Shown here: positions 7,132-29,016 of the stretch, piece after piece
How the letters are laid out: each line of letters starts with the position of its first letter
Numbering within the stretch: the first letter of the stretch is position 1
NCBI GenBank assembly: GCA_965218055.1
Contig: CBDCKA010000002.1
Span: forward strand, 1,136,514-1,200,513
DNA: 64,000 nucleotides
From: Terriglobia bacterium
GTDB taxonomy: Bacteria > Acidobacteriota > Terriglobia > JAJPHL01 > JAPKYU01
Direction of reading: 5' to 3'
Position numbers and translations under genes: made by a program
The notes under the pieces: model-generated
Told to the model about the DNA's origin: nothing
Database searches by the model: none
What the model saw: only the letters and a program-made list of their open reading frames with translations

Positions 7132-7310
7132 GGCAGATGAACCTCCGGCACTTGGTTTTCAGAATCCTATGGCATTCCGGCACCGCAAGTACAGGGGACA
7201 GTTGAAGCGCGGTCGCGGTTCTGTCACACTTGGAATGTTGCCCCAGCTTTGAAAACCATGGGACGAGAAAAGGGGCAAAGACTCTCTAGCCTGCTTCTGG
7301 TGTCGCCCAT

Positions 7311-7400
7311 GGAGGAGTGGCCGAGTGGTTGATGGCACTGGTCTTGAAAACCAGCGCACCCGAAAGGGTGTCGGGGGTTCGAATCCCTCCTCCTCCGCCA
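7311..7400 (+). tRNA. tRNA-Ser (anticodon UGA), class II with long variable arm, CCA encoded
   Basis: Cloverleaf folds by hand. The 7-bp acceptor GGAGGAG pairs with CTCCTCC. The anticodon stem CTGGT/ACCAG encloses the loop CTTGAAA. The long variable arm is GCACCC-GAAA-GGGTGT. The T-loop is TTCGAAT, and G plus CCA close the 3' end. Confidence 0.9.
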
Positions 7401-7679
7401 TAATTCATCATTGTCCATCAGCGACTTACAGCTGCAATGACACCGAGCGCTTGGAGCGGCGCTTCCTCAGCCGTTGCCGGGTGCTGGAGTTTTCCAGCTA
7501 CGGCTTGAATGGGGCCTGGGCCGAATTCCTGTGCCGCGTCTGGGAAGCCGAAGGCGGAAGCCTGGACGCTGCGCCGGACTTCACCCGCATCATGAAGAAC
7601 ACCTGCAACAACATCCGGGACGCCTTGATGCACCTGGAAGTGGAGCTACTGGCGGCTTGAACGCGCGGAGCAAACCACC

Positions 7680-8261
7680 ATGAAACGCGCAGCCATCTAC
7701 GCCAGGGTGAGCACCCGGAACGGCCAGCATCCAGAGATGCAACTAGCCGAGTTACGGGCCTACTGCGGCCGGCGCGAGTGGGGGGTTGCCGGGGAGTATG
7801 TGGACCAGGGCATAAGCGGCTCCAAGGAGCAGCGATCGGCCCTGGACCGCCTGCTGGCCGACTGCCGACGCCGCACCGTGGACGCTGTTGTGGTTTACCG
7901 CTATGACCGATTTGCCCGCAGTCTGCGCCAGCTTGTGAACGCCCTGGAGGAATTCCGCTCCCTGGGCGTTGACTTCATCAGCCTGCATGAGGGAGTGGAC
8001 ACCAGCACTCCGAATGGCCGCCTTGTGTTCGGTATCTTCGCCTCGATCGCAGAGTTTCAGCGGGAGTTGATTCGGGAGCGGGTCCGCTCGGGGATTGCAA
8101 CTGCTAGAACCAGAGAGAAAAGGTTGGGCCGTCCTAGGGTGACCGTGGATGCTTCTAGGGTAGCTGTCCTTCGCGCCCAGGGGCTTTCCTGGCGCTCCAT
8201 CGCGGACGAGATGGGCATTGGGCTGGCGACCGCAGTCCGAGCGGTTTCTAAGGCGAGCTGA
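7680..8261 (+). CDS. small serine recombinase (resolvase/invertase family)
   Basis: N-terminal AIYARVST catalytic-Ser motif, a resolvase catalytic domain and a C-terminal HTH. It lies 280 bp downstream of the tRNA-Ser. Confidence 0.9.
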   Translation: MKRAAIYARVSTRNGQHPEMQLAELRAYCGRREWGVAGEYVDQGISGSKEQRSALDRLLADCRRRTVDAVVVYRYDRFARSLRQLVNALEEFRSLGVDFISLHEGVDTSTPNGRLVFGIFASIAEFQRELIRERVRSGIATARTREKRLGRPRVTVDASRVAVLRAQGLSWRSIADEMGIGLATAVRAVSKAS

Positions 8262-8679
8262 GGTTGATTTCCAAGAGGGCGGGCCGCTTACGTCGCAGCC
8301 ACACAATCCAGGCTAGGATCTGAACCTTCCTTTTTCCGTACTTCTGTGAGATCAAGCTCCTTGGCCGGGGCTCCTCGGACGGATTGAGTATCCGGCAGAG
8401 GGCCTTAACCGCCGGCCCTGTGGGTTCTCCCCGCCGCGTGCAGGGCGCCACTTCCACCTGCGGGTTATTGCGAAGCCTCTTGACCTTGCCGGCTTGCGCT
8501 TCGGTTCCCACGTACAGTTTGCCTGAGTCCTCCACGAACCAAACGGGCGTTGCGACCGGTTGGCCCGACCGGCGGAATGTCGTAAGGGAGATGTACCGCT
8601 CCGGCTCGAACATGCGAACTGGCAGTATAAGCTCAACTGAGGCCAGAGCGCTGCTCCCGACCAGTGTTCCAAAACCCAC
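8248..8679 (-). CDS. PPOX-class (pyridoxamine 5'-phosphate oxidase-like / F420-dependent) FMN-binding family protein
   Basis: …TFRRSGQPVATPVWFVEDSGKLYVGTEAQAGKVKRLRNNPQVEV… matches the PNPOx-like split-barrel family. The true start may be the internal Met at 8613. Confidence 0.65.
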   Translation of the reverse strand: MGFGTLVGSSALASVELILPVRMFEPERYISLTTFRRSGQPVATPVWFVEDSGKLYVGTEAQAGKVKRLRNNPQVEVAPCTRRGEPTGPAVKALCRILNPSEEPRPRSLISQKYGKRKVQILAWIVWLRRKRPALLEINLSSP

Positions 8680-8839
8680 TCGCCGGCGCGGTCGGAAGTT
8701 GCTGATTCAGCACGCCGCACGAAAAGCCGTTCAGCCGTTCCGAAAACAATTGCTTTTCACACATGGGAGAGGAGCGCTAGCCCGTTTGTGGGGACTATCG
8801 GCCCGTGCGTGAGGTCTACTTCCCCGAAGGCGATCCAAG

Positions 8840-8869
8840 GCACTTGTCCGGTTAGGGCGTTATACGGCC
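8840..8869 (+). repeat. dispersed short repeat, type-2 copy G (GCACTTGTCCGGTTAGGGCGTTATACGGCC)
   Basis: Matches the reverse complement of 12441-12470 in 23 of 30 positions and shares GGGCGTTAT.CG with copies B and E. Confidence 0.6.
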
Positions 8870-9272
8870 ATGTGGCTGGCGTCGGAGCGAGATGCACATG
8901 ATGGCCGACGGGTGGCGCGGAAGTACGGAGGTCGCTATCCGCAGAGGAGACCTATGAGGATCAATCACCAGAGCAGCCCTGAAGCGACTAGACAATTGAC
9001 TCGATTCTGTCGTCTGCAACCGAACCACAGGTTGCTGCGTTCTTGCGACCGAGTATCCACCCGACCTTTCGAGGACCCGCCCCGCCACTCGGCGGGGCCA
9101 AGATGGCCTCGCTACGACTCAAACGGTCCTTCCTGGGGCGGAGAACTTGGGATGGTTGCCGCGTGTTGTCAAGCGGGTCGTGCTGCCCACCCTGAGAGTC
9201 TGGCGGTTCGATCGCCGCAACGCTCCGCGCCCACTCGGGAGTCCTGTAGCCGTCCCCGAAGTGCGGCGGCGG

Positions 9273-10947
9273 TCAATCTCGCCCGGGCGTGCTGTCGGCG
9301 GTGGTCTTCGGCTGGCTCGCCGTGGCGGGTGATGTTGCCGACGGCTGCCGGCTCATGGAAGGGAACAGGGGAGTCACTAGGAAGGGCATTTTCTTTTTGG
9401 CGGTAACCGGTGCGACGGGCTGGCTCCTCATCAGCTCGATCCGGCCACTCCAAGCATCGACTTTGAGGCGTGAGCCGAAGGGAAGGGCAGCGACCTGGTC
9501 AAGGCGATCAGGTTGGAGCTCGGGGATGTGGTTCTTCCGGGTAGCCAAGCGATTGCCCAAGTTGGCACCGAACAAGCTATCCAGGCGGGGGGCGTACTGC
9601 GCCATGGCATGCAGGAACAGGGCAGCGTTGCCCAGACGGTCTTGGTAGGGTGAGTTCTTCAGGAGCTCCATGGCCTTCGCGTCGGCGTCTGCCTCTTTCT
9701 TTCGGGTCGCGGGCGAAATCCAGGTCTTCCAAGAGCTCGTCATCGGACGCCATGAGGCGGTCGTTAAAGGCATACTTGGTATCCGTCGAGTGGCCCAGGA
9801 CCAGATGGGCCAGTTCGTGGGCCAGCATGGCGGCAAGTGCCGCTTCATTAGGGAGGGCATCAATCAGGCCGCGGCTAAGCACGATAGTATGGCCGACGGT
9901 AAAGGACTCGAATGGTAAGGTCAGCATCTCGCGGCAATGGATTGGCGGCAAGTTGTCGAGATGGTTCGTGACCACCAAATTGTTCACGACGGTTTCGAGG
10001 ACCTTGTCAACCTCGCCAGGCGGAGCAATCAGACGCGCTTTTTCCAACCGTTCGAGCACGTTGGCTTCCGCCTCATTCTCCCATTGTCGCATGCTCGCCA
10101 GCGGCGAGATGTCGCCGGCCGTCTCGCTGTTGTCGCGGACGGGCAGGGGCCCATCCACCAGGATGCGGGCCAATTGTTCCTCGCGAGCCGAATTGCTCAG
10201 GTCGTATCCCCAGAAACGTGTTTGCGATCGGAACTCGGATTCTTCGGCATAGACATAGACGGGAAGCCACAGCCCGGGCTGTAGGTTCTGCCGCCAACTG
10301 TCAAAATGGATGTAGAAGTAGAACTTCGGGGGCTTGGTCCGGATGCCCTTGAACCGGACGATGGTGTAATGCTCGTCTTCCACACAGATCCGGCCTTTGA
10401 ACCGCCCGGTTCCCGCGTGACGGCGCGGGCTCACATCAAACAGCAGACAGCGCAGATCGCCCAGAAAGGTGCTCCGCACAAACTGAAACTGGTAATGCTT
10501 GCGATCGAGTCCCTTGTAGTCGACCAGCGAGGCTTGGGCGAAACTGTCAATCTTAATCTTGAACTTGAATAGCCGCCTGACGAAGCTGGGATGGCCAAAC
10601 ATGCGGGACAGCAAACCGACTCGGGGCTTGGGGAGGAATGAGCGTACCTCCACACCTTCGTCAAATTCCAGCTGTCCGAGAAAATATCCGTCGTTGTGCG
10701 GGACAACGCCCCAATCGGGGTCGGGGCGGACTTGCTGAAAGTAGGTCTCAACGCGCGGGCGGTATTTCTGCAGAGTCTGAGCTAACGCGTTCTCACGCGC
10801 CATGATGCGGTCCACCACGGCCCGTACAGCCGGAGACTCCTCCTGCTGAGCCTCCCGCGGCTTCTCCGCCCCACCCTGGCCTTCTCCGGGAAAGAGGAAG
10901 AGTCCCGCCAACAGCCCTACGCTGAGAAAAATCCTGGAATTCGTCAT
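9273..10947 (-). pseudogene. secreted M48-family zinc metallopeptidase (HELAHLVLGH), interrupted by a frameshift near 9700-9730
   Basis: The N-terminal part (ORF 9577-10947) has a signal peptide and the HExxH motif. The downstream protein continues in another frame (ORF 9273-9863: …KKEADADAKAMELLKNSPYQDRLGNAALFLHAM…). The switch maps to the run CGAAAGAAAGAGG. Confidence 0.7.
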
Positions 10948-12044
10948 GAAAGTTCCCCTGAATTGCTAGATGACCCCGCCAATTGAAAGACCACGCGCAA
11001 AGTAGCTGGAAAATCCACTGGTTTCCCGTCACGTCGCGCCGGCTTGAAACGAATGGCCTCCGCGGCCCGGCACGCGGCCTCATCCAGGCCGTAACCCAAG
11101 CCCTCCACCACACGCACCACCTGCAATCTCCCGGAAGCCGTGAAGATCACGGAGAGCACAATCTCACCCTGCAGGCCCAGCTTGCGCGCCGCCTCGGTAT
11201 AAACAGGGTCGGGTTTGAAGAGAATTTCGACCGGCACCAGCGACGGCTTTTCCGGCACGCGCCGGTGCGTCACGGATGTCTGTGCGGCGGGTTTGGGGTC
11301 GAATCCACTTGGCCGCACGACGCCCCGGCTAGCTTCGCCTTGCCCATTGCCGCCCCCACTCGCACTGACGATGCCGTTGCTAAAGCCCGCGCTGGCAACC
11401 GTTCCGCGAGCGCCGGGAGTCCCGCCCGACCCATTTCCATAGCCCCCGCCGGAGGGCAGAGCGAAGGATCCCAATTTGACAACATTGCCCGGATTGCCCC
11501 CCTGGGCGTCCCCGGCGAGGCCGTTGGGGCTGCCAAAACCACCGGTCTGGACTTCGCGCGCCGGAAGCTTCAACGTTGCCACTGCGGCACTGCCTTCAAA
11601 AACACCCACCTTCGGCGGAGGGGAGTGGGGCCTTGGGTCGCCTGGAGTGGGAGCGCTGGGGAAGACCACTCCCACCTTGGGGGGAACCGGCGCCTGCACT
11701 TTGGGCTGTTCGAGGCGCGGAACAGCTCGCAACAGGGGCGCTAGACGCGCCTGGACGGGCGGAAGCGACAGTTTCGGGGCTTCCATCTTCCACACCGGCC
11801 TCGGCGGCATGGGAGCGCGCGCCTGTTGCTTTGGAGGCGTCACCAAATCGATATAGACGGGCGGCGGTTTCTGGTGGACGGTTTCGATGACCGAGGGGAA
11901 CAGGAGACCCAGAACGACAACCAGCCCCAATCCCAAGCCATGGGCGGCAATGCTGACTCCGAACGCACCCCATTGACGTCTGCCCTGGGTGGGCCCGTAC
12001 TCCAGGAGGCTGAAAGGGTGGACACTCCTGCTCTGCACTCGCAC
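10944..12044 (-). CDS. TonB family protein (C-terminal TonB domain)
   Basis: N-terminal TM helix, a Pro-rich spacer and a C-terminal TonB fold (…VEILFKPDPVYTEAARKLGLQGEIVLSVIFTASGRLQVVRVV…). It overlaps the M48 gene by 4 nt. Confidence 0.8.
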   Translation of the reverse strand: MRVQSRSVHPFSLLEYGPTQGRRQWGAFGVSIAAHGLGLGLVVVLGLLFPSVIETVHQKPPPVYIDLVTPPKQQARAPMPPRPVWKMEAPKLSLPPVQARLAPLLRAVPRLEQPKVQAPVPPKVGVVFPSAPTPGDPRPHSPPPKVGVFEGSAAVATLKLPAREVQTGGFGSPNGLAGDAQGGNPGNVVKLGSFALPSGGGYGNGSGGTPGARGTVASAGFSNGIVSASGGGNGQGEASRGVVRPSGFDPKPAAQTSVTHRRVPEKPSLVPVEILFKPDPVYTEAARKLGLQGEIVLSVIFTASGRLQVVRVVEGLGYGLDEAACRAAEAIRFKPARRDGKPVDFPATLRVVFQLAGSSSNSGELS

Positions 12045-12440
12045 TTCACACTCCCGTAGCTGCTTGTCTGGGGGGAATTCAGCCGCCCATCATTCTGTGG
12101 TCGCAGCGTTGAAATGTCAACGCCTGGGAATAGGGTATTGCTTGATGAGACACCGGCCTTCGGCAGTGAGCCAACACTCCCAGGAATCCCCAGGCTGGCG
12201 ATAGGGTGGCGCAGTTAGACTTCCGGTTAACCCGCGAGTCAAGGACAACATGTCCCTCGCTGGGCCCACTTATTTCCTCTCCTTGGCCGTTGCGAGACCC
12301 CACCTTGTCACCAGCGATGCCAGATAGATTGCCCCAATCCCTCAGTTTCTTTCCGATCCTGCTGTCAACTCCCGAATAGTCGCCAACTCAGACACTATCG
12401 CAGCGCTTTGCGGCTCCTCCTCTATCGTCGGCGGACACTT

Positions 12441-12470
12441 GGCCGTATAGTCGGCTATCCGGACAAGTGC
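12441..12470 (-). repeat. dispersed short repeat, type-2 copy F (reverse complement GCACTTGTCCGGATAGCCGACTATACGGCC)
   Basis: Inverted partner of copy G; its tail CCGGATAGCCGACTATACGGCC resembles the tail of copy A, CCGGGAAGCCGACAATACGTCC. Confidence 0.6.
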
Positions 12471-12719
12471 CTACCTGGAGGCGGCGTCACTCAATAGCTG
12501 AGAGCAGATAGGTCCACACAAGTCGGTTGGCGTTTACTTATGCTTTAGGAACGCGCCGGCGAGGCTACAGGTGTCAGGACCAGCCCGAACCGACAGCGCT
12601 CAGCCTGTCGAGGTGAATCGATGCCGTGCCTGGCGCAACGGAGGACCTTGTCGAGTGATTGTGCGCGACTACCGGCTGTCCCTCGATGCCACGATGCACC
12701 GAGGATTCACTAGGGATGT

Positions 12720-13839
12720 TTATCCCGTCACTCCGAGCGGGGAGAAATAGATCATTATGAGAACAATGACCGAAATGATAATCGCCGTGTGGATCACCTC
12801 CTTGTAGCTCCAGCTCGCTCTGGAGAGCGCCCTGTCTTGTGCCAAGGTCGTAGCGTAGGTCAGTCCCCTCAGCCTCTGTTCCGATGGGTTCTCTGTCAGG
12901 AGGCTCACGATGGTCATGATGGCGACGGCGATGAGGAACAAAACTGGCGCAAAGTATAGGAAGTTAATCCTGGCATAGGCATGGAGCAGCGGTACCCCTT
13001 CCACGGGGAAGACCTCGACGGCGAGCTTGCTCATGCCCAGAAGGAAGCCGGCGATCAGCGCCGAGAGGGCGCCCTTGCCGTTGATCCGCTTGAAGAAGAC
13101 GCCGAGCAGGAAGACCGCCGTGATCGGCGGAGCAATATAAGCCTGTACGTTTTGGAGGTACTTATAGAGCGAACTCTCCTCCGACATCCCCTTCAGAATC
13201 GGAATCCAGGCGATCCCCAGGGCGACGACGACCGTCGTGGCGATGCGTCCCACGCGCACCAGCGTCGCCTCGGTGGCTTCGGGTCGGAGCTTCTTGTAGA
13301 TGTCCATGGTGAACAGGGTCGAGCAGCCGTTAAACACCGCAGCCAGCGAGCTCATAAGCGCCGCGATCAAGCCCCCGGCAATGAGTCCCCGCACGCCCAC
13401 CGGGATCAGAGTCCTGACCATTGTAGGGAAGACCTGGTCCGCCGTCTCATAGTGGAGCTTGCCCTGCTTGTTCAGGGCAAAGGCGATGATCCCGGGGACG
13501 AGGAAAATAAAAAATGGGAGAAGTTTCAGGTAGCCCGCAAAGATCGTTCCCCTGCGGGCGTTTGCCTCGTCCTTGGCCGCCAGTGTCCGCTGGACGATGC
13601 ACTGATCGGTGCACCAATACCAAATGCCGACAATGGAGCCAGTAAGCAGGAGGCCGAGCCACGGGAAACTGGAGTCGAGTGGCGGCCACATGTTGAGATG
13701 ATCCTTGCCCACCGTCGACAGCACGTTGTCCCACCCCCCGACCTCCACGATGCCCACGATCGTCACTGTAATCGATCCCAAAATCAGGACGACTACGTGC
13801 ACCGCATCTGTGTACACGATAGCCCGAAGCCCACCGAGT
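12720..13839 (-). pseudogene. sodium:solute symporter (SSS) family transporter, 5'-truncated by the IS3-family insertion at 13840
   Basis: Only 365 aa (about 9 TM helices) of SSS-like sequence remain. The reading frame runs straight into the IS left terminal inverted repeat with no N-terminal third. Confidence 0.7.
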
Positions 13840-13895
13840 GCCCTGGACTGGGTAATTTAGACACTGAGGTTGGGAATTAACTACCCTGGTGTCAT

Positions 13896-14156
13896 ATGAA
13901 CAAAAAACATCATCGTATTGCAGCTGACGTAAAAGCCGATATCCTACGCCGCGTCAAGGAAGAAGGCATCTCGGTGGCCCAGGCCGCCAAGGATCACGGT
14001 ATTTCTGAAGGGAGCATCTATGGTTGGATGGTAAAAGGAGCAACCGGTGCCCCGTCCTGGGCGGAGTTCTCCCGACTTCAGAAGCAGAACAGAGAACTCC
14101 TGGAACTCGTGGGCGAGATCACGCTCAAGCTCTCCATGACTCAAAAAAACAATTGA
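13896..14156 (+). CDS. IS3-family transposase OrfA (HTH)
   Basis: 86-aa HTH protein MNKKHHRIAADVKADILRR…, identical in all copies. Confidence 0.85.
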   Translation: MNKKHHRIAADVKADILRRVKEEGISVAQAAKDHGISEGSIYGWMVKGATGAPSWAEFSRLQKQNRELLELVGEITLKLSMTQKNN

Positions 14157-14941
14157 GCGAAGGAAGAAACAAATCAGCGCTTGCCCGAGCCCTTGGCATA
14201 TCCCGCGCGAGCCTGTATTACGTCCCAAGAATGAAGGAGAAGGACTGGCGCCTCAAGGTCCGCCTGGAAGAAGAGCTGCAGATCCATCCCTCCTACGGCT
14301 CCCGGCGAATTGCTACGGCACTGGGACTCTGCCGCCAGCGGGCGCAGAGGGTCATGCGTCTGTTTGGCATCAAGCCCTACCGCAGGAGAGGCAGAAAATG
14401 GAGAAAATCCAAGGTTTCCCGGACCTATCCCAACCTCCTGCTCGCGCTCATGCCCGCATATGCAAACCACATCTGGGCAACGGACTTCACCGAGTTCGTG
14501 CAGCACGGAAAGAAGGTCTATGTGGCGACCGTGATCGATCTCTACACCCGCCGGATCCTGGGAATCCAGGTTGCGGTGAGAAAGGGAGCCGCGCTCACCA
14601 TTCAGGCGCTTTCCAACGCCCTGCTCCATCATCCGCGCCCGGGTCTATTCCACTCCGACAACGGGAGGGAGTATGACGCGATGGCGTTCACTGAAATCCT
14701 TGATGGATGCGGCATCGTGATTTCACGGAGCCGCCCGGGGTGCCCTTGGGAGAACGGATACCAGGAATCGTTCTACGACAAATTCAAGGTTGACCTGGGA
14801 GATCCGAACCGCTTCAAAACACTGGGGGAGCTAGTGGCGGAGATCTACCGCACCCTGTGGGACTACAACAACACGCGGATTCACTCCGCGCTCAACATGC
14901 CGCCTGTGGTATTCGCCAAACGGTATGCGTTAGTCGCGTAA
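14024..14941 (+). CDS. IS3-family transposase OrfB (DDE integrase domain), expressed as an OrfAB fusion by -1 frameshifting
   Basis: DDE catalytic core (…WATDFTEF…SDNGREYD…ENGYQESFYDKFK…). It is in the -1 frame relative to orfA, overlapping at CAAAAAAAC. Confidence 0.85.
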   Translation: MDGKRSNRCPVLGGVLPTSEAEQRTPGTRGRDHAQALHDSKKQLSEGRNKSALARALGISRASLYYVPRMKEKDWRLKVRLEEELQIHPSYGSRRIATALGLCRQRAQRVMRLFGIKPYRRRGRKWRKSKVSRTYPNLLLALMPAYANHIWATDFTEFVQHGKKVYVATVIDLYTRRILGIQVAVRKGAALTIQALSNALLHHPRPGLFHSDNGREYDAMAFTEILDGCGIVISRSRPGCPWENGYQESFYDKFKVDLGDPNRFKTLGELVAEIYRTLWDYNNTRIHSALNMPPVVFAKRYALVA

Positions 14942-14984
14942 AAAACTCTCAGAATCAGTGTCTAAAGAAATCAGTCCTTGACAC

Positions 14985-15494: not shown

Positions 15495-15495
15495 C

Positions 15496-16629: not shown

Positions 16630-16782
16630 CGTGGGAAGAGGAAACAGGAGAAGCCAGGAAGAGAAAACGAGACGGGTGGGTGCCCATTCCTGAAGACATC
16701 TCTGATCTGGGAGACCCTGTAAAGGCGCTCCGCGAAGCCGTCGCGCGGACGCTGTTGGCGGGTTGCACAAAGGAGGGGGAAT

Positions 16783-17973: not shown

Positions 17974-18208
17974 GAGAATTCCTATAGTACATCATGGTTA
18001 TGAGAATCACATAAGTGACGCCACTTCATGGAGCCTCTCTCCGGCGTGTCAGCGCCGCCGCCCGCTTGTGGGCCTGTGCGGCGCGCCCAACAGAAGGGTC
18101 TGAGAAGTCGAGGGCAAATGCGGACAAAAACAAGAGAAGCCGCAGAACAGGCACACAAGCGCCCTCTGGAGGGGATCGCTCAAAATAGTAGCGCCAAGCC
18201 GCCGTTTT

Positions 18209-21200: not shown

Positions 21201-21423
21201 CAAGCGCCGTGACGGTCACGTCCTGGATCACGGCCTGGGTTTCGTCTACGACGAAACCTCGGATGCTGCCCGTGTTCGTCTGCGCGTACGCGGCAAGGCT
21301 GCCAATCAGCGTGAGCGATACGATGTGGAAGAAGCAAAACGAGATTGCCACGGCACGGATGAATCTGGAACGTACTTTCGTAGCTGCGATGTGAGGGGAT
21401 GTCTGCTGGGTAGTATGCAACAT
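18209..21423 (-). pseudogene. TonB-dependent receptor with N-terminal carboxypeptidase-regulatory-like domain; apparent frameshift at 20756-20830
   Basis: The ORF at 20752-21423 encodes a signal peptide, a CarbopepD_reg-like domain and the plug start (…INRRDYLDLALLTPGV…). The ORF at 18209-20755 continues upstream in another frame (…SSGLGIGGGNGRGNTFMIDGLDN…) and ends with the TBDR C-terminus …FTLRLAF. The frames switch within about 70 nt. Confidence 0.7.
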
Positions 21424-21775
21424 ATAGGTAGGGGATTATATGTCTGACCATGTATCGTCCCCAACAAAAACCACTCATGATTCGCGTGGACCCGGAATTT
21501 TAGAGCGCACCAATGCCTGCGCCAGACGCCTGGGACTAGACCGGAATTTCCATTATGACCTCCCGGCTGTGGCAATGATACGCTCGTTGGCCTGAGTTGG
21601 AGCACATTTTTGCCGCTTCCCTCCTCAGGAGGCAAGACACGCCAATGACGGCGTACCGCGTCTGCGATCCACGCAAGGTCCAGAAGCCTGGTTCCATCCC
21701 CAGCGTTGAAAAAACAACAATAAGCCATTCTTCGGGATGATCTATGCAACAAGCGCTTCAGGGGGTATTCCCCTC

Positions 21776-23044
21776 CTACCGATCGCCCAAGGCCTCCGCC
21801 TGCCGCTTGAAGCTCTTCTCGACCACTGCGGAACCAAGCGAATCACCGAAGACGTTCACCGCCGTCCTGAAACGGTCCAGTAGCCAGTCGACCGACAGGA
21901 TCAGCCCGATATATTCGACAGGTAATCCGACCGCGTTCAACACGATTACCATCGTGACCAGCCCGGCTTCGGGAATGCCCGCGGCTCCGATGGCCGCCAT
22001 GGTAGCGGTGACGGCAATCACAAGCTGCGAGGTGATCGTGAGCTCAAACCCAATCGCCTGTGCGATGAATATGGCGGCTGCGGCCTCATAGAGGGCGGTG
22101 CCATCCATGTTGATCGTGGCTCCCAAGGGAAGAACGAAATCGGAGGACTGTTTCGATACCTTGGCCTTTTCGACAGCACAATTCATCGTGATCGGCAGCG
22201 TTGCTGTTGAACTCGCAGTTGAAAAGGCCGTCAGGAGAGCCTGGGACATCTGGTACATGAAACGGAACGGGTTCCTTCGGGTGAAGATCCACAGGATCAA
22301 GGGAAGCGTTAAAAATGCATGGACCCCCAGCCCGGCGAGGACCGTTCCAAAGTACGCTCCGGTCTGTTGAAGAACCGCTCCCAGGTTTCCCCCAGCCTGG
22401 GCTTCACCAAAGCGGGCAGTCACCAGGCAGAAGATCCCAAACGGAGCCAGTTTCATCAGCAACAGGATGAACGACAAGAGCGCTTCGTTGACCTGGGTGA
22501 TCATCTCGGCAAGCGCCCGGACTCGGGCGCCCATCGTCGTGAGCATTCCGGCAAAGATGATCGAGAAGACAATCAGCGGCAGCAGGCTGGTCTTGGCTGC
22601 CGACTCGATCAGGTTGTCGGTAAAGAGCATCAGGACCAGGCCCCGGAGGATCGTTCCCAGGCCCGCGTCTTCCCGGCCAGCAGTGTTCACCTGGCCCTCC
22701 GCGAGGCTCGCGTCTAGGACCGCCTGGTCGACACCGACACCGGGCTGAATGAGATTCACCATGAGCAGACCCACGATCACAGCCAGGACGGTTGTCATCA
22801 GGTAGTAGGTCACCGCCAGACCGCCGGGGCGGCCCAGTTTTCGAATGTCGCCGAGTCCAAGGATGCCGCTCATCACGCTGGCCATCACCAGCGGAACCAC
22901 CATCATCGTGAGCAGGTTGAGGAATATCTTACCCCCAAGCTCGAACTGCATCGCAAATCCCGGAGCAAAAACAGCCAGGAGGACGGCCAAAATAATCGCA
23001 ACGGCGATGTACAAGGTCAGGTGGCTCTTCGGTTTATCGGGCAT
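21776..23044 (-). CDS. dicarboxylate/amino acid:cation symporter (DAACS family, GltP/DctA-like)
   Basis: DAACS family sequence (…LTMMVVPLVMASVMSGILGLGD…ATINMDGTALYEAAAAIFIAQAIGFELT…). The start is assigned to MPDKPKSHLT at 23044. Confidence 0.85.
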   Translation of the reverse strand: MPDKPKSHLTLYIAVAIILAVLLAVFAPGFAMQFELGGKIFLNLLTMMVVPLVMASVMSGILGLGDIRKLGRPGGLAVTYYLMTTVLAVIVGLLMVNLIQPGVGVDQAVLDASLAEGQVNTAGREDAGLGTILRGLVLMLFTDNLIESAAKTSLLPLIVFSIIFAGMLTTMGARVRALAEMITQVNEALLSFILLLMKLAPFGIFCLVTARFGEAQAGGNLGAVLQQTGAYFGTVLAGLGVHAFLTLPLILWIFTRRNPFRFMYQMSQALLTAFSTASSTATLPITMNCAVEKAKVSKQSSDFVLPLGATINMDGTALYEAAAAIFIAQAIGFELTITSQLVIAVTATMAAIGAAGIPEAGLVTMVIVLNAVGLPVEYIGLILSVDWLLDRFRTAVNVFGDSLGSAVVEKSFKRQAEALGDR

Positions 23045-23377
23045 TGTGCAGCCTCTCCGAGTTGATGCGCCGATTCTGCTTCCGCTTGGCGGCGATAAAC
23101 CATCATTATGCCCTCGCCAAGCCTGAAAAGCTAGCGAACGAGCATCGCCACGTTCCGAGGACAAGACCGGCCCAAAACCCCCAAAAGGCAACAAATCTCC
23201 TTAGCGTCCGATTCTTTCCGCTTCGTGAGGTGACTACAACACCCGTTCCGTAGCACCTTTTCCAGGAGTCGGGAACCTGGGGTGCGGACACGTTGGCATG
23301 CCCCACGTGGTTCCATCCCCATAGGCAGAAGAGTCCGCACCCAGCGCCCCGAAATATGACAAAACCGGGAGGATGCC

Positions 23378-24343
23378 ATGAAACGTATGCATCGATTGTG
23401 GAGCTTTCTAGTTGCGCTTGGGGTTTTCGTTCCGGGGGCGGCGCATGGTCAGGGAATATATCTCGGCTTCGAGATGGGCCAGAACTTCGTCCCGGGAATG
23501 AATACCACAGGAGACAGCGACGACCGGGCCAGCGTGTGTGACGAGTATATCAACCCGCTGTACACGACCGTGACACAAACTGCCGGGTATGAAGACTACA
23601 ACTGCACGGGTTCGAATCGCGGGTTAGGTGACGACTGGAACAACAGGTTTGACAGCGCCGGTGGCTTTCTGTCCGGATTCGTGCTGGGGTATCGAACAGG
23701 AAAGAACGACCCGGACGGGATGCGGGTCCGCCTTAGGCCAGAGTTCGAATACTTCTACCGGGCCTCCCGATATGACCAGACCGCCGATATTCCCTTCGCC
23801 ACCGGAGCCTCCGGCGACAAGATTCGTCAGGAAATTCAGGTGGCGACGGACCGCATAGGCACCCTCGCCGGGCACAATCTGTTCGGGAACCTGTATCTGG
23901 ACTTCACCAACAGCACCCGGTTCACCCCCTATGCCGGGCTGGGCATGGGTATCGGTTCTGCCAAAATGGAATACACCAGTCTGTGGGCCAGGAACGCCGA
24001 CCCCACCGCCATCTCCACCGGAGAGGGGCTGCCCAACGTCGAGCAGATCCGCCGGAACCTTGCCGGAACGACCAGTGTCGCCCAGAAGGCACTTTCCGAC
24101 ACCCTGTTCGGTTATCAGGTGCTGTTCGGAGTGGACTACGAAATCACGGAGTCTCTGTCCATAGGGGTGAAGGGCCACTGGATCAACTTCTCATCCTTCC
24201 ATAGCGAGCGTTTCGAATGGATTCCGTTGCGCAGCCACGTGCCGAATCTGCGCAGGGACGGGAGCGAACCGGTATCGGGCACCATCATGGCAGACGACAT
24301 GAAGCTGTTCGGTTTCAGCCTGAGCCTGAAATACCACTTCTGA
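23378..24343 (+). CDS. outer-membrane beta-barrel protein
   Basis: Signal peptide MKRMHRLWSFLVALGVFVPGAAHGQ, beta-strand periodicity and a C-terminal …LSLKYHF. Confidence 0.7.
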   Translation: MKRMHRLWSFLVALGVFVPGAAHGQGIYLGFEMGQNFVPGMNTTGDSDDRASVCDEYINPLYTTVTQTAGYEDYNCTGSNRGLGDDWNNRFDSAGGFLSGFVLGYRTGKNDPDGMRVRLRPEFEYFYRASRYDQTADIPFATGASGDKIRQEIQVATDRIGTLAGHNLFGNLYLDFTNSTRFTPYAGLGMGIGSAKMEYTSLWARNADPTAISTGEGLPNVEQIRRNLAGTTSVAQKALSDTLFGYQVLFGVDYEITESLSIGVKGHWINFSSFHSERFEWIPLRSHVPNLRRDGSEPVSGTIMADDMKLFGFSLSLKYHF

Positions 24344-24598
24344 CAACCTGTCGTTCGATGGCACCGCGTTCCGAATGCAGTCGGAGAGCGACCGGCCTAG
24401 AGCTAGCTCGCGGCTTTGGGTCTGAACCGCTTCGGTGCAAAGCCACGCGAGGATCAGGCGCGGCAGGTTCCCGTAGGGGAGCTTGAAATCCCCCGTGGCC
24501 GTCGTGATGAGGGTGGATGGCCCGCTCTGCCGCTTGTACTGGAGTTGGTTGCCGGGGTTGGGGCGGGGCAGTGAAGAGGATGCCGATCTGGGTTTCAA
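24344..24598 (-). other. possible fragment of a RepA_N-like replication initiator (gene remnant)
   Basis: …TATGDFKLPYGNLPRLILAWLCTEAVQTQSRELALGRSLSDCIRNA… loosely resembles the conserved RepA_N block (…ATIYDKDILIYCISQLVEA…). It is only a remnant with no intact ORF, and lies between the OMP gene and the integrase. Confidence 0.2.
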
Positions 24599-24649
24599 GG
24601 CGCGGCTTGTGGTGACAAAGAACCCGGGGTGAGGGAGTGTACTCGAGGC

Positions 24650-25624
24650 TCACACGGAGATGCGCTCGACGATGTTGCGGGTGACGCGGCGACGCCGGCG
24701 GTCATAGATCTGGGTGGTCTTGGGGTTGGCATGGCCGGCCAGGTACTGGACGTCCTCGAGAGGCACGTCCTGGGTGAGCAGGTCGGTGACCACCAGGACG
24801 CGGAAGCTGTGGGGGCTGAAGATGTCGGGCAACCGGGCATCTTTGAGCCGTCGCTTGAGCATGCGGCGCATGGCGTTGGCCGACAAGGGAGCGGCGGAGA
24901 GCTTCTTTTGCTTTCCCCTGGCCGCCCGGAACAGGGGCGTCTCCTTGGGGTCCGCAGCGATCCGGGCCGCCTGCAGGTACGCCTCAAGCCAGCGATCGAG
25001 GTCGTGGCGGACGGGGATCTCGCGCTGCTGGCCGCCCTTTTCCCGGAACCGCAGGACGCGCTGGGCGCCCTGGTCCTCGAGGTCCTGGCGGCGGAGCCGG
25101 GCGAGGGCGCCGACACGGGCCCCGGTGTAGGCGAGGGTTCCCAGCACGGCCCGATCTCGCAATCCCACGACACCAGAGAGGTCCAAGGAGCGAAGCAACC
25201 CCCGCGCCTGCCCGGGGGTCAGCTCGGGCGTCTTGCCGTCCACGACGGCGTGCTTCCGCCCCCGCACGGAGGAGAACGGGTTCAGAGCCACGGCATGGCG
25301 AATGACCAGGGCATCGAAGAAATGCCGCAGGGCGGCCAGCGCCAGATTCCGTGTGGGGTCAGATCCTGGAATCTCCTCAATGAAGCGCCCGGCGAGGCCC
25401 GGCGTAACCTGACGCAGCTCGATCCCTTGCTCCTCGCACCAGGCGAGGAAGCGCCCTACGATGCGGGCGTAGGCGCGGCGGGTGTGGGGGTTGGAGATGC
25501 GGGCGGCGAAGAACTCATCGGCGGCAAAGAGCGCGTTCTTCCCGGCACGCTGCAGGACGGCGGGGGTGCGATCGAGGGCCTGGGAGGCGGGCAGAAGGGC
25601 GGATTGGGAAGGGTCTGTGTGCAT
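24650..25624 (-). CDS. tyrosine recombinase / phage-type integrase
   Basis: C-terminal catalytic domain with …HSFRVLVVTDLL…LAGHANPKTTQIYDRR (box II, catalytic Tyr) and an N-terminal SAM-like domain. Confidence 0.9.
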   Translation of the reverse strand: MHTDPSQSALLPASQALDRTPAVLQRAGKNALFAADEFFAARISNPHTRRAYARIVGRFLAWCEEQGIELRQVTPGLAGRFIEEIPGSDPTRNLALAALRHFFDALVIRHAVALNPFSSVRGRKHAVVDGKTPELTPGQARGLLRSLDLSGVVGLRDRAVLGTLAYTGARVGALARLRRQDLEDQGAQRVLRFREKGGQQREIPVRHDLDRWLEAYLQAARIAADPKETPLFRAARGKQKKLSAAPLSANAMRRMLKRRLKDARLPDIFSPHSFRVLVVTDLLTQDVPLEDVQYLAGHANPKTTQIYDRRRRRVTRNIVERISV

Positions 25625-25831
25625 GGCGATATAGGGGATGATAACCTACTTTATCAGGCTGTATAAGGCTGTGCTCCAATCCCAGCCGCAACCGTCCGCC
25701 AGCACATCTGAGAGAGGAACGCGATAAAAAACAGTAACCTTCCCGCCTAAAGTCCGGCCACCACGGTGCGTAGCCAACGCAGCTTGCAGGCATGCACTTT
25801 ATATGGTTCACTGTATATTGAAAGGTGCAGG

Positions 25832-26188
25832 ATGGCCGACGAGCCGAAGCCACAGAAAATCCCGTTGATCTTCTACCGCACGCGGTCGGGCAGCGAACCC
25901 GGGAGGGAGTGGCTGAAAGGGCTGGATGAGGCCGAGCGTCAGGCGATAGGGAAGGACCTGCTGCGGGCGCAATGGCGCTGGCCGGTAGGCATGCCGCTGT
26001 GCCGCCCGATGGGAGACGGCCTCTGGGAAATCCGGACGGACCTGCCGACAAAACGGACGGCGCGCGTGCTGCTTTGCCTCTACCGCAAGCACCTGGTGGT
26101 GCTGCACGGGTTCATCAAGAAAACACGGGCAACGCCGGATTCGGACCTGGCAACGGCACACAAGCGTCAGAAGGAGTTGGAACGATGA
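25832..26188 (+). CDS. type II toxin, RelE/ParE superfamily (Gp49/HigB-like)
   Basis: …PMGDGLWEIRTDLPTKRTARVLLCLYRKHLVVLHGFIKKTRATPDSDLATAHKRQKE matches the Gp49-like HigB family. The toxin-first gene order and the ATGA overlap with the downstream HTH gene fit this call. Confidence 0.8.
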   Translation: MADEPKPQKIPLIFYRTRSGSEPGREWLKGLDEAERQAIGKDLLRAQWRWPVGMPLCRPMGDGLWEIRTDLPTKRTARVLLCLYRKHLVVLHGFIKKTRATPDSDLATAHKRQKELER

Positions 26189-26463
26189 GCAAGAAGCATA
26201 TGGGATCTAGCATCGATGCCTTCCTCCTTGAGGAAGGCATCTTCGAGGAAGCGCAGGCGCAGGCAATCAAGGAAGTCGTGGCGTGGCAGCTCGCGGAGGC
26301 CATGAAGAAGAAGAAAATCTCCAAGAACAAGATGGCGACGCTGCTGAAGACGAGCCGCACCCAGGTGGACCGGCTGCTCGATCCGAAAAACGACATTACG
26401 CTGGGAAGCCTGCAACGGGCCGCCGCAATGGTCGGGCGCCGCGTGAATATCGAGTTGGTGTAG
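26185..26463 (+). CDS. HigA-like antitoxin (XRE-family HTH protein)
   Basis: 92 aa with a C-terminal HTH (…KISKNKMATLLKTSRTQVDRLLDPKNDITLGSLQRAAAMVGRRVNIELV). Its start overlaps the toxin stop (ATGA). Confidence 0.75.
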   Translation: MSKKHMGSSIDAFLLEEGIFEEAQAQAIKEVVAWQLAEAMKKKKISKNKMATLLKTSRTQVDRLLDPKNDITLGSLQRAAAMVGRRVNIELV

Positions 26464-26520
26464 GGGGACAAAGGGTAAGCTCATCGTGGAGCGAATTTAG
26501 ATCCCCGGGGACAGCTGTAC

Positions 26521-27267
26521 GTGATGAAATTTGACGGCTACACCTTACAGGCTCGACTCATGCCCACATACGTCGTGCTTCTGCCCTTAGCGATAGGACT
26601 TCAGGTGTGGCTTCCGGAGGGAGCCATACTGGAGCGACTCGGCACGATTCTCGTCGCCCCCGCGCCGCTGGCTATACTTCTTGCACAGCTAGGCCGCGAC
26701 CGCGGCTACAGGTTGCAGAAGCAACTGTGGACCGGTTGGGGTGGCGCGATGACGACACAAATGCTTCGCCATCGGAGAACGGATGGCAACCCGGTCATGC
26801 GGCAATCGTATCATGCGTGCATTGAGCGGCTGTTTCCCGATCTGAATATACCCACGTCCGAAGAAGAGAACGCTAACCCCCAGGCGGCAGATCGCGTTTA
26901 TGAAGCGGCCACGAAAAAATTGATTGCGGCGACTCGGGATCGCGACAGATTTCCACTCATTTACAAGGAAAATGTAAGTTATGGCTTTAGGCGCAATCTC
27001 TGGGGGCTTCGGCCTCTTGGTCTGATTCTATCGATCGGGGGAGCAGTGATCTGCTTGGTCCGGTGGTTATTGTGGACGGACCCAGGGACCGCGCCGGCAC
27101 AGAATGTTGACTGGTTCTTGGCTTGTGGTGCATGCTTAGTGATGACTATCCTGTGGGTCTTTTGGATTAAGCGATCTTGGGTTCGTATTCCCGCAGAGGC
27201 ATACGCCGAGCGGCTCTTTGAAAGCTGCGAGCTACTGAAAACACAGGCGGATGACGCAACCCAATGA
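26521..27267 (+). CDS. hypothetical 4-TM membrane protein (2 TM – cytoplasmic domain – 2 TM)
   Basis: 248 aa, possibly with a GTG start at 26521 (ATG at 26524). Its stop overlaps the start of the next gene (ATGA), so the two look like an operon. Confidence 0.55.
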   Translation: MMKFDGYTLQARLMPTYVVLLPLAIGLQVWLPEGAILERLGTILVAPAPLAILLAQLGRDRGYRLQKQLWTGWGGAMTTQMLRHRRTDGNPVMRQSYHACIERLFPDLNIPTSEEENANPQAADRVYEAATKKLIAATRDRDRFPLIYKENVSYGFRRNLWGLRPLGLILSIGGAVICLVRWLLWTDPGTAPAQNVDWFLACGACLVMTILWVFWIKRSWVRIPAEAYAERLFESCELLKTQADDATQ

Positions 27268-27414
27268 AATTCGAGATACTCGACGTCGGTCACGGCTTCT
27301 GCGCGTTGCTGACTGCTGATAACGGGAATATCATACTGTTCGATTGCGGCCACAAAACCACCCCTGAGTTTCGGCCATCAACATACCTTCAGCAGCTTGG
27401 GTGCTCGGGTATCG
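27264..27414 (+). pseudogene. MBL-fold (ComEC-like metallo-beta-lactamase domain) protein, 3'-truncated after ~50 codons by IS3 copy 3
   Basis: MKFEILDVGHGFCALLTADNGNIILFDCGHKTTPEF… matches the N-terminal ComEC/MBL block (ILDVGQGD…ILID.GG). The frame runs directly into the IS right terminal repeat at 27415. Confidence 0.5.
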
Positions 27415-27456
27415 TGTCAAGGACTGATTTCTTTAGACACTGATTCTGAGAGTTTT

Positions 27457-28374
27457 TTACGCGACTAACGCATACCGTTTGGCGAATACCACAGGCGGCA
27501 TGTTGAGCGCGGAGTGAATCCGCGTGTTGTTGTAGTCCCACAGGGTGCGGTAGATCTCCGCCACTAGCTCCCCCAGTGTTTTGAAGCGGTTCGGATCTCC
27601 CAGGTCAACCTTGAATTTGTCGTAGAACGATTCCTGGTATCCGTTCTCCCAAGGGCACCCCGGGCGGCTCCGTGAAATCACGATGCCGCATCCATCAAGG
27701 ATTTCAGTGAACGCCATCGCGTCATACTCCCTCCCGTTGTCGGAGTGGAATAGACCCGGGCGCGGATGATGGAGCAGGGCGTTGGAAAGCGCCTGAATGG
27801 TGAGCGCGGCTCCCTTTCTCACCGCAACCTGGATTCCCAGGATCCGGCGGGTGTAGAGATCGATCACGGTCGCCACATAGACCTTCTTTCCGTGCTGCAC
27901 GAACTCGGTGAAGTCCGTTGCCCAGATGTGGTTTGCATATGCGGGCATGAGCGCGAGCAGGAGGTTGGGATAGGTCCGGGAAACCTTGGATTTTCTCCAT
28001 TTTCTGCCTCTCCTGCGGTAGGGCTTGATGCCAAACAGACGCATGACCCTCTGCGCCCGCTGGCGGCAGAGTCCCAGTGCCGTAGCAATTCGCCGGGAGC
28101 CGTAGGAGGGATGGATCTGCAGCTCTTCTTCCAGGCGGACCTTGAGGCGCCAGTCCTTCTCCTTCATTCTTGGGACGTAATACAGGCTCGCGCGGGATAT
28201 GCCAAGGGCTCGGGCAAGCGCTGATTTGTTTCTTCCTTCGCTCAATTGTTTTTTTGAGTCATGGAGAGCTTGAGCGTGATCTCGCCCACGAGTTCCAGGA
28301 GTTCTCTGTTCTGCTTCTGAAGTCGGGAGAACTCCGCCCAGGACGGGGCACCGGTTGCTCCTTTTACCATCCAA
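27457..28374 (-). CDS. IS3-family transposase OrfB (copy 3)
   Basis: Identical 305-aa product. Confidence 0.85.
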   Translation of the reverse strand: MDGKRSNRCPVLGGVLPTSEAEQRTPGTRGRDHAQALHDSKKQLSEGRNKSALARALGISRASLYYVPRMKEKDWRLKVRLEEELQIHPSYGSRRIATALGLCRQRAQRVMRLFGIKPYRRRGRKWRKSKVSRTYPNLLLALMPAYANHIWATDFTEFVQHGKKVYVATVIDLYTRRILGIQVAVRKGAALTIQALSNALLHHPRPGLFHSDNGREYDAMAFTEILDGCGIVISRSRPGCPWENGYQESFYDKFKVDLGDPNRFKTLGELVAEIYRTLWDYNNTRIHSALNMPPVVFAKRYALVA

Positions 28375-28502
28375 CCATAGATGCTCCCTTCAGAAATACC
28401 GTGATCCTTGGCGGCCTGGGCCACCGAGATGTCTTCTTCCTTGACGCGGCGTAGGATATCGGCTTTTACGTCAGCTGCAATACGATGATGTTTTTTGTTC
28501 AT
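28242..28502 (-). CDS. IS3-family transposase OrfA (copy 3)
   Basis: 86 aa with one substitution (E23D) relative to copy 1. Confidence 0.85.
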   Translation of the reverse strand: MNKKHHRIAADVKADILRRVKEEDISVAQAAKDHGISEGSIYGWMVKGATGAPSWAEFSRLQKQNRELLELVGEITLKLSMTQKNN

Positions 28503-29016
28503 ATGACACCAGGGTAGTTAATTCCCAACCTCAGTGTCTAAATTACCCAGTCCAGGGCAAACAGCAACGAGGAAGCCAGCGAACGCGGCCGCATCGATCC
28601 GCGCCGTAGCGGCACTGTGAACCCCTCGAGCATGGCCGGTGTGACCTGGCTCGGAGCCAGCGCCGCCTCCAGGTTGCCCGGCAACTCGGCCAGGGGCGAC
28701 GGCCACTTCACCAGCAACCGAGGAGCCGGATACAAAACCAAAGCCTCGCGTCGCGACCGCTGCGGTTCGCGACTGAGTCCCAGCCGCACAAGAATCCGCA
28801 TGACTTTGTTTCTGTATTATAGGCGTAGGATGCTATGCAGGGAAGGGCAGCGATTCGAGAGTCCGGAATGCAGGTTCCACACTTCCCACTACATTGGCCA
28901 CTGCGTCGGCGACTGCATCGGCCAGTGAGATGAATACCTGAATGTCGCGTGGGCGCGGCGGTCGCCTGACGCGGGGCAAGCAGGATGCGGAGCGGGCCGA
29001 AGGCACTCCTGCTCGC

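Follow-up and report, generated by a model that had tools for sequence, protein, structure and literature searches.

In tRNA-integrated islands and integrative mobilisable elements (IMEs) of the P4-like type, variable accessory DNA begins right at the tRNA gene's 3' end. Plasmids of the IncQ (RSF1010-type) group encode the MobA relaxase, with Tyr25 as the catalytic residue of RSF1010 MobA, and inverted copies of insertion sequences (ISs) of the IS3 family may flank a segment of DNA and mark synteny breakpoints as the outcome of IS-mediated rearrangements. Features of all these systems are found at positions 7311-28558 of a 64,000-nucleotide stretch of DNA (the window) from an uncultured lineage of the Terriglobia (Acidobacteriota), namely positions 1,136,514 to 1,200,513 of contig CBDCKA010000002.1 in assembly GCA_965218055.1. 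The initial annotation of this interval, which begins at a tRNA-Ser(UGA) gene, described it as a single tRNA-integrated mobilisable element in decay. The DNA is indeed accessory, rich in mobile genes, decayed and shaped by ISs, and it does hold the remnant of a mobilisable replicon; however, the gene arrangement of sister strains indicates that it is not one element. It probably consists of two unrelated accessory pieces, an islet at the tRNA gene (part A, 7401-13838) and a plasmid-derived mosaic (segment B, 14984-27414), joined by recombination between IS copies. A preprint on peat-soil metagenomes (10.1101/2025.02.12.637893) has reported that Acidobacteriota are rich in mobile elements, and suggests that the conjugative elements of its dataset are for the most part degraded, assembled poorly or undetectable in complete form, a picture that the decayed mobile DNA of the window fits.

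The window is chromosomal, with Rieske and cytochrome b genes upstream of the interval and peroxiredoxin and purD genes downstream. Near-identical sister strains were recovered by exact-protein look-up in two metagenomes, ERZ25067264 and ERZ25072670, and a 723-kb sister contig (ERZ25067264 ctg835736) is 99.95% identical to the window at 1-13838 and 28560-40379. The sister sequence between these two matches amounts to 23,332 bp, which are missing from the window; in their place the window has 13839-28559, namely segment B with its bounding IS copies. Chromosomal synteny with the sister is restored from 28560 (in L005, where L and a number designate the individual loci and contigs fetched for comparison, positions 8841-20660 correspond to window 28560-40379 at 99.95% identity). 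In the sister strains only 7401-13838 of the interval follows the tRNA gene, the sequence then running on into core genes (mreBCD-rodA-rng). In order, the sister 23,332-bp block comprises the first 170 codons of a sodium:solute symporter (SSF) gene, an IS5-like element, a sulfatase fragment and a gene for a TIG-domain protein; the genes for methylmalonyl-CoA mutase (MCM), a FecR-like protein, MreB, MreC, MreD, PBP2 and RodA; and those for RNase E/G, two glycosyltransferase-type genes and the last 534 codons of a gene for a TonB_C-domain protein of 614 amino acids (aa). Segment B minus both flanking IS copies was found, at 99.7-99.9% identity, on separate 20-kb contigs of the same metagenomes, which carry other strain-specific IS insertions and a full-length IS at the same truncation point of mobA, followed by hsdM.

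The two IS copies that bound segment B are of one 1145-bp element, copy 1 at 13839-14983 (+; orfA 13896-14156, orfB frame 14024-14941) and copy 2 at 27415-28559 (−), which is in inverted orientation and has a 1-nt difference from copy 1. The element has TG...CA terminal inverted repeats, its ends reading TGCCCTGGACTG...CAGTCCTTGACA, and an orfA of 86 aa (assigned to HTH_Tnp_1 among the gene calls of the sister) overlapped by the orfB frame. Its transposase was assigned to the IS3 family with 189.5 bits for NCBIfam NF033516 (cutoff 160); a first guess of IS481, made from the single 305-aa rve open reading frame (ORF), was discarded in favour of IS3, the score of 91 bits lying below the cutoff of 224. 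An older copy of this IS, now diverged, is represented by a fragment (IS positions 1 to approx. 511) at 14984-15494 (−), and a third full copy lies outside the interval at 54275-55419 (+), a simple insertion flanked by a GCCT target duplication of 4 bp. Thus, of the three IS copies and one fragment originally counted in the interval, the fragment stands and only two full copies are inside. The three full copies differ mutually by 0-1 nt.

In contrast with the third copy, no target duplication was found at copies 1 and 2, whose outer flanks differ (CGAG on the left, AACA on the right). Their four flanks are unrelated: codon 170 of the SSF gene, the old IS at approx. 511-518, codon 50 of an MBL-fold gene and codon 80 of the 614-aa TonB_C-domain gene. 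On the left, copy 1 cuts the SSF gene (12720-13838, −), of which the first 170 codons are gone so that only positions 144-406 of the Pfam SSF profile are matched; the gene is intact, with 542 aa, in L001/L100, and identity to the window stops at 13838. On the right, copy 2 cuts both the MBL-fold gene, of which the first 50 codons are left at 27264-27414 (+; 276 aa when intact, as in L003/L004, with weak MBL/ComEC similarity), and the TonB_C-domain gene, of which the first 80 codons are left at 28560-28801 (−). Since target duplications are lacking and the outer flanks belong to genes that are 23.3 kb apart in the sister arrangement, copies 1 and 2 mark recombination junctions rather than a single transposition. 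The older IS is full-length beside the relaxase remnant in the sister strains; the 14984-15494 fragment shares with the L007 copy six diagnostic single-nucleotide polymorphisms (SNPs) that set it apart from copy 1, and it is therefore the orthologue of the relaxase-adjacent IS copy of the sister strains.

IS insertions also distinguish sister strains that are otherwise >99.8% identical. These are IS5/IS1182-like, IS4-like and IS3-like (L002 4716-6055; L003 6205-7697 and 10653-12322; L004 11663-12914), with one interrupting the gene of the TonB-dependent receptor (TBDR) described below, and they indicate very recent, ongoing IS activity in the population. Within the window, the third IS3-family copy lies in an IS-dense, atypical stretch (51441-58600) that also includes an IS4/IS701-like element (51441-53109), an IS1595-type transposase gene (57492-58565, −) and several ORFs without family match.

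At the left end of the interval, the tRNA-Ser(UGA) gene (anticodon tga, 7311-7400, +) was identified with ARAGORN, and homology to empty sites ends exactly at its 3' end, at 7400, so that the interval does begin right after the tRNA gene. The empty-site set includes two GTDB genomes (with an ABC ATPase 96% and 91% identical to that of the window) and three metagenome contigs (L079, L062, L096, L098 and L099 in all). The order common to these five relatives is cytochrome genes, permease, ABC ATPase, tRNA-Ser(tga), BNR, TPR (or FRG), MCM, FecR, MreBCD, PBP2 and RodA. BNR directly follows tRNA-Ser in L079, L062, L096 and L098. The flanks in L099 are the same, but a transposase gene of the IS1595 type separates tRNA-Ser from BNR, and FRG stands where the others have TPR. 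The comparison with relatives proposed at the outset could thus define the empty site and confirm that the DNA beyond 7400 is absent from them, yet the inserted DNA is not one unit. In the sister strain the homology to the empty site picks up again 9 nt downstream of the stop codon of the MCM gene, and the DNA after the tRNA gene that is specific to the lineage amounts to 11.6 kb, in replacement of 3.0 kb (BNR and TPR).

Other genomes, among them a different species that serves here as a control for a hot spot and not as a sister strain, carry islands at the same tRNA-Ser site. In L095 (at 8512-9732) an island with a P4-type integrase, AlpA and IS91 has a 14-nt repeat of the tRNA end beside BNR, and in L088-L094 other DNA at the site ends in an 18-nt repeat of the tRNA end, ATCCCTCCTCCTCCGCCA (L088 9892-9909), the L088 island at the tRNA-Ser/BNR junction containing GSDH, aldehyde-dehydrogenase and IS genes. 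The tRNA-Ser(UGA) 3' end is, therefore, a genuine integration hot spot in the clade, with both empty and occupied sites known. By using these 18- and 14-nt repeats as positive controls, attachment (att) sites were searched for with patterns of 25, 19, 18 and 17 nt and with 11-mers over the window, the sister locus and the fetched loci. In the window there is neither a second match to the 25-nt tRNA end (≤3 mismatches) nor any recurrence of an 11-mer from the last 25 nt of the tRNA gene, and the 17-18-nt core of the tRNA end has no other copy in the window (≤1 mismatch) or in the sister-strain locus (≤4 mismatches), a 13-nt match inside the TBDR gene at 21064 being due to chance. The direct repeat of the tRNA-Ser 3' end that was expected downstream as right attachment site (attR) is thus absent from both. 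No integrase is found beside the tRNA gene, which is separated from a resolvase gene by only 280 bp.

Composition does not set the interval apart either. The GC content is 0.608 in part A and 0.611 in segment B, against 0.587-0.617 in the flanks, and the tetranucleotide correlation to core DNA is 0.94 and 0.93, respectively, against 0.94-0.98 for core pieces, values that are slightly inflated for the latter because the reference included the core pieces themselves. The break that was anticipated between 7.4-28.6 kb and its flanks is, therefore, not seen; the compositional outliers of the window are the IS itself and the 54-58 kb region (GC, 0.54; tetranucleotide r, 0.62).

As for the content of segment B, the gene at 15495-16629 (+; ORF 15469-16629) encodes a relaxase of the MOBQ (MobA/MobL) family from which approximately 30 N-terminal codons are missing. 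The product matches Pfam PF03389 with 75.6 bits (cutoff 26.7) at profile positions 42-205 only, gives 76.8 bits for the NCBIfam MobQ model, whose cutoff of 200 is not reached, and is 53.5% identical to IncQ1 (RSF1010-type) MobA over residues 8-205, aligning from approximately residue 30. The region of the catalytic Tyr25 is gone and the HxH/histidine-triad motif (NPHAHLM) is present, in agreement with the earlier remark that the catalytic N-terminus is lacking. From its sequence, the ORF is predicted to be a remnant of the MOBQ family and not a functional member. The truncation is common to the window and the sister strains, so that it predates the strain split; the many indels in mobA of L008 (5x coverage) were taken as assembly noise because L007, a 24x contig, agrees with the window.

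Intact relatives of the relaxase (428-429 aa, up to 86% identity) are numerous and lie on contigs of 5-55 kb, and more than 1200 homologues were found at E ≤ 1e-20 in metagenomes from peat and soil. The closest one is on a circular contig (L102/L103, ERZ26167216 ctg453884_c) together with genes for RepA_C, ParA, a ribbon-helix-helix (RHH) protein, a resolvase and restriction-modification functions, the gene content repeating with a period of approximately 14.5 kb. Another circular contig of 35.5 kb at 40x (L104, ERZ25072670 ctg249699_40x_c) has the relaxase and an Xer-like recombinase 86% identical to that of the window; for these contigs, circular (_c) or linear (_l) topology was read from the suffix of the contig name, as an interpretation of the naming used by the assembler. 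Window 15495-17044, i.e. mobA from approximately codon 30 and the next gene, encoding 97 aa, matches the L102 and L104 plasmids with 88-95% nucleotide identity (88-93% for the mobA remnant, 95% for 16133-17044). The homologue of the 97-aa gene (16783-17052, +) is 93% identical to the L104 protein, and plasmid homology stops at 17044.

Further plasmid-derived pieces are found at the other end of segment B. A fragment of a RepA_C-type replication gene (24368-24583, −), on the opposite strand, retains approximately 72 codons (codons ~63-134) that are 61-67% identical in aa sequence to RepA of L102/L104 (Pfam RepA_C E = 0.001), and a weak second RepA piece of 32 codons is at 16659-16754. The supposition of a RepA_N-like fragment is thus right in recognizing a replication remnant, but the type is RepA_C-like, not RepA_N. 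The tyrosine integrase that had been reported corresponds to a 324-aa Xer-like tyrosine recombinase (24650-25624, −), confirmed with Pfam PF00589 and PF02899 and scoring under every NCBIfam Xer cutoff; window 24650-25663 matches the plasmid recombinase gene, and the gene lies in segment B, 17 kb from tRNA-Ser. Next to it are genes for HigB, a Gp49-like toxin (25832-26188, +; Pfam PF05973, 64 bits, cutoff 23.9), and for a 92-aa HigA-like helix-turn-helix (HTH) antitoxin (26185-26463, +), with a 4-nt overlap and HTH_26/HTH_37 matches below cutoff, a Gp49 toxin and overlapping HTH partner that make up the predicted HigBA pair already proposed. The 1.8-kb unit formed by the recombinase gene and HigBA (24649-26475) recurs at 93% identity in L106, in a different mobile-DNA context. 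It is followed by two hypothetical genes for proteins of 71 aa and 172 aa, the latter a membrane protein (26524-27267, +; from the sister gene calls), and by the truncated MBL-fold gene.

These identities show that segment B is, as judged by sequence, derived from small circular mobilisable plasmids of soil communities that carry RepA_C, a MOBQ relaxase and an Xer-like recombinase. The plasmid region upstream of the relaxase gene, where the origin of transfer (oriT) was to be sought, is absent: homology to the intact plasmids begins inside mobA, and an IS end replaces what should precede it. Having lost the catalytic Tyr, the oriT region and the greater part of repA, segment B would be unable to replicate, to be nicked or to be mobilised. 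No megablast match for 7311-28558 was obtained among the PLSDB plasmids and, accordingly, none of the described plasmids is closely related in DNA sequence; within the literature and PLSDB as far as checked, neither the small circular MOBQ/RepA_C plasmid family nor this hot spot has been described.

By taking into account the sister order, the empty site, the plasmid relatives and the junctions, the following path can be proposed. The tRNA-Ser 3' end would have carried a variable islet, continued in the sister strain by the IS5-like element, the sulfatase fragment and the TIG gene, with the 11.6 kb replacing BNR and TPR. The 1145-bp IS, being active, would have inserted in four targets, namely the SSF gene, the 614-aa TonB_C-domain gene, the old IS beside mobA and the 276-aa MBL-fold gene. 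Homologous recombination between the IS copies would then have put the mosaic between the truncated SSF and TonB_C genes, with at least two exchanges being required, either as two inversions or as a double crossover. The mosaic would thereby have been swapped with the 23.3-kb core block (mcm, mreBCD, pbp2, rodA, rng and the glycosyltransferase genes), which should now lie elsewhere in the genome. Outright deletion of the block is unlikely because mreBCD, pbp2, rodA and the RNase E/G gene are normally indispensable, and their loss is expected to be severely deleterious.

How this path compares with other explanations can be judged from the same data. Were 7311-28558 one integrative mobilisable element, inserted at tRNA-Ser by its own integrase and decayed later through ISs, its start would coincide with the tRNA 3' end exactly as it does, the relaxase remnant, the two site-specific recombinases, the toxin-antitoxin pair and the cargo would all be expected inside, and relatives do use the tRNA-Ser end as an att hot spot. 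However, the 99.95%-identical sisters pass from 7401-13838 directly to core genes and have the relaxase and integrase on other contigs, and the IS copies that bound segment B cut chromosomal genes that ancestrally were 23.3 kb apart. Moreover, the integrase is 17 kb away from the tRNA gene and has plasmid-borne close homologues, no tRNA-derived repeat is found in the window or the sister locus, and the composition is uniform with that of the flanks. It is by the last two features, the att-like repeat and the compositional break, singled out beforehand, that the single-element model fails, and we regard it as very improbable. The 12.4 kb of cargo enclosed by two near-identical inverted IS3-family copies, in a lineage in which the IS is active (a new copy with target duplication, many strain-specific insertions), is also what a composite transposon would look like, with copy 1, segment B and copy 2 moving as a unit and an adjacent deletion removing the 23.3 kb between SSF and TonB_C. 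Such an event would have left a target duplication at the outer ends, which is not seen, the deletion would have taken mreBCD, pbp2, rodA and the RNase E/G gene, and copy 1 abuts the older truncated IS rather than a clean segment end, so that this origin appears quite unlikely.

Considerations of a different type apply to the assembly, in which the chromosome may have been misjoined to the segment-B locus through the near-identical 1.1-kb IS copies; the real genome would then have a simple IS insertion in each of SSF and TonB_C, or none, and segment B elsewhere. The 0-1 nt differences among the three IS copies would favour such an error, the arrangement is unique to the window, the ancestral order being that of two sister assemblies made independently, and two single-base frameshifts hint at base errors in the source assembly. 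On the other hand, two independent misjoins would be required; the source, if it is the contig of more than 1 Mb reported to carry the window proteins, is probably a long-read assembly, which should have reads across a 1.1-kb repeat; and copy 1 joins an older IS that is truncated internally and set apart by its SNPs, a particular arrangement that a collapse of repeats would hardly generate. An artefact is thus unlikely, and the joining of two unrelated pieces by IS recombination is preferred. Some points nevertheless weigh against the latter besides the chance, small as it is, of a chimeric assembly at the near-identical IS copies. The relocated 23.3-kb block, which should be flanked by IS copies and by those halves of SSF and TonB_C that the window lacks, is a prediction beyond the 64 kb read. 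The sister 20-kb contigs with segment B end in repeats, so that segment B may there be chromosomal or lie on a larger plasmid, and the cargo at 17045-24367 may have been plasmid-borne or captured from the chromosome. Finally, the right junction of part A is without any repeat, and BNR and TPR are deleted.

Part A itself opens with a two-gene module. A 111-aa ORF (7325-7660, +), of which only residues 34-111 are conserved, precedes the gene for a 193-aa small serine recombinase of the resolvase/invertase type (7680-8261, +), identified as initially suggested by its match to Pfam PF00239 (Resolvase, 160.6 bits) and comprising an N-terminal catalytic domain and a C-terminal HTH. At least 80 resolvase homologues (71-81% identity) were found in soil and peat metagenomes, with unrelated neighbours and with part-A cargo beside none of them. 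ORFs that are 51-53% identical to the conserved part lie immediately upstream of the resolvase homologues in L160, L166, L182 and L183, and this 78-aa upstream ORF is kept in four to seven of the homologue loci. A tRNA gene is near the resolvase homologue in 7 of 80 loci, upstream on the same strand in six of the seven. In five of the seven a tyrosine integrase adjoins the tRNA gene (L133, L155, L164, L108 and L169, with tRNAs for Asn, Lys, Cys, Thr and SeC), and among loci having the 78-aa partner there is no tRNA gene adjoining the module. In L160 an ArdC-like gene is next to, and upstream of, the resolvase/78-aa module, which fits the role of a passenger on mobile DNA. The module is taken here to travel often as a passenger on tRNA-integrated islands and plasmids and not to be an integrase. 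It is highly doubtful that the resolvase-sized serine recombinase, with the 78-aa partner, inserted the islet at the 3' end of tRNA-Ser; the missing attR would then be explained, because serine recombinases do not leave long direct repeats, and, if this were true, a resolvase-sized serine recombinase would be an integrase for a tRNA site.

The module is followed by genes for a PNPOx-like protein (8248-8679, −; Pfam PF01243, also found in the sister strains), a 178-aa hypothetical protein (8870-9406, +; called in the sister contig), an M48-like peptidase/membrane sensor (9274-10947, −; with 557 aa in the sister but out of frame here owing to an additional T at 9696) and a 366-aa TonB_C-domain protein (10944-12044, −; Pfam PF03544), the last being translationally coupled to the M48 gene, and then by the truncated SSF gene. 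No Pfam or NCBIfam name was obtained for the 111-aa, 178-aa, 71-aa, 172-aa and 97-aa ORFs of the interval. We infer that part A is a remodelled, immobile leftover at the hot spot, without integrase or attR. Non-coding dispersed repeats are present at 12215-12515 and 8782-8884, and are 82-90% identical to pieces of L088 and L090 and, in the sister strain, to the spacer between TIG and MCM. The 178-aa, M48 and TonB_C genes are flanked by a pair of imperfect inverted repeats of 47 nt (8838-8884/12426-12472). The possibility that this pair represents the ends of an M48/TonB_C transposon was rejected, as the arms belong to the dispersed repeats seen in other genomes and there is no transposase gene inside.

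The cargo of segment B consists of genes for a 294-aa outer-membrane beta-barrel protein (17089-17973, −; Pfam PF13505), an Oar-like TonB-dependent-type outer-membrane protein (OMP) with CarboxypepD_reg and OMP_b-brl_4 domains (the TBDR; 18209-21423, −; 1071 aa in the sister, split here into two ORFs by one G missing at 20809), a dicarboxylate/amino-acid:cation symporter of the SDF family (DAACS; 21776-23044, −; Pfam PF00375, 383 bits; 422 aa in the sister) and a second outer-membrane beta-barrel protein of 321 aa (23378-24343, +; weak Pfam match, called in the sister contigs). The TBDR, DAACS and two OMPs listed earlier are, therefore, all borne out by Pfam, one OMP weakly, and their block (17045-24367) sits between plasmid-derived pieces. 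The statement that several genes are truncated or frameshifted applies to the SSF, M48, TBDR, MBL-fold and 614-aa TonB_C-domain genes; the frameshifts at 9696 (+T) and 20809 (−G) fall in short runs resembling homopolymers, and may have arisen from errors in sequencing.

Outside the interval, an insertion of approximately 880 bp with respect to the L079 empty site (3727-4608) has 22-bp terminal inverted repeats (TIRs), TAGTGGGTCAGTTTCCGGRAAG, and a 7-bp target duplication (CCGGAAG). Its sole gene encodes a Crp/Fnr-like protein that binds cyclic nucleotide monophosphates (cNMPs) (3897-4556, −). As there is no transposase gene, this is a non-autonomous TIR element carrying a regulator. Solo copies of its approximately 40-nt terminal-repeat sequence, at the intergenic positions 63492-63541 and 29402-29440, suggest a dispersed family resembling miniature inverted-repeat transposable elements (MITEs).

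All the components of the interval are of known kinds, i.e. a tRNA islet, a MOBQ/RepA_C remnant, an Xer-like recombinase with HigBA and IS3-family copies as recombination substrates, and reflect the ordinary wear of mobile DNA. Thus, the direct value of the present analysis is small, being that of a correction at the level of annotation that opens no long-standing question. The locus illustrates, however, how copies of an IS3-family element can bring a defunct piece of plasmid next to a tRNA hot spot so as to mimic a classical genomic island. It also provides work on soil Acidobacteriota with a defined tRNA-Ser(UGA) hot spot for which empty and occupied sites are available and, as by-products, with a family of small circular MOBQ/RepA_C plasmids having hundreds of relatives in peat and soil metagenomes, and with strain-level evidence of an IS recombination that would have relocated the mreBCD-pbp2-rodA-rng block.

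When compared with tRNA-integrated islands and IMEs, the interval resembles them in that its variable accessory DNA starts exactly at the tRNA 3' end, and the same tRNA-Ser end bears integrase islands with 14-18-nt repeats in L095 and L088. Unlike them, the tRNA-proximal part has no tRNA-adjacent integrase, attR, relaxase or oriT, the recombinase next to the tRNA gene is a serine enzyme of the resolvase type, and the right junction replaces BNR and TPR instead of being a clean insertion. With IncQ/RSF1010 plasmids the relaxase remnant shares the MobA similarity and the histidine triad, and its intact relatives are on small circular replicons with Rep encoded just upstream. However, these relatives, with 428-429 aa, have no primase fusion as in RSF1010 MobA, the replicase is of the RepA_C type rather than IncQ RepA/B/C, the hosts are uncultured Terriglobia and, as opposed to functional IncQ plasmids, the copy in the window is a dead chromosomal remnant in which the Tyr and oriT regions are missing and the rep gene is incomplete. 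The overlapping toxin and HTH genes beside a tyrosine recombinase gene are typical of plasmid maintenance regions; the differences are that the HTH match of the antitoxin is weak and that L104 has the recombinase without HigBA, and the role of the recombinase in multimer resolution or integration is putative. Finally, the IS has the DDE transposase (above cutoff), the orfA/orfB layout, the TG...CA termini and, at its simple insertion, the 4-bp duplication of the IS3 family, of which it represents, with 1145 bp, the short end, and its inverted copies flank a segment and mark synteny breakpoints as in other IS3-mediated rearrangements.

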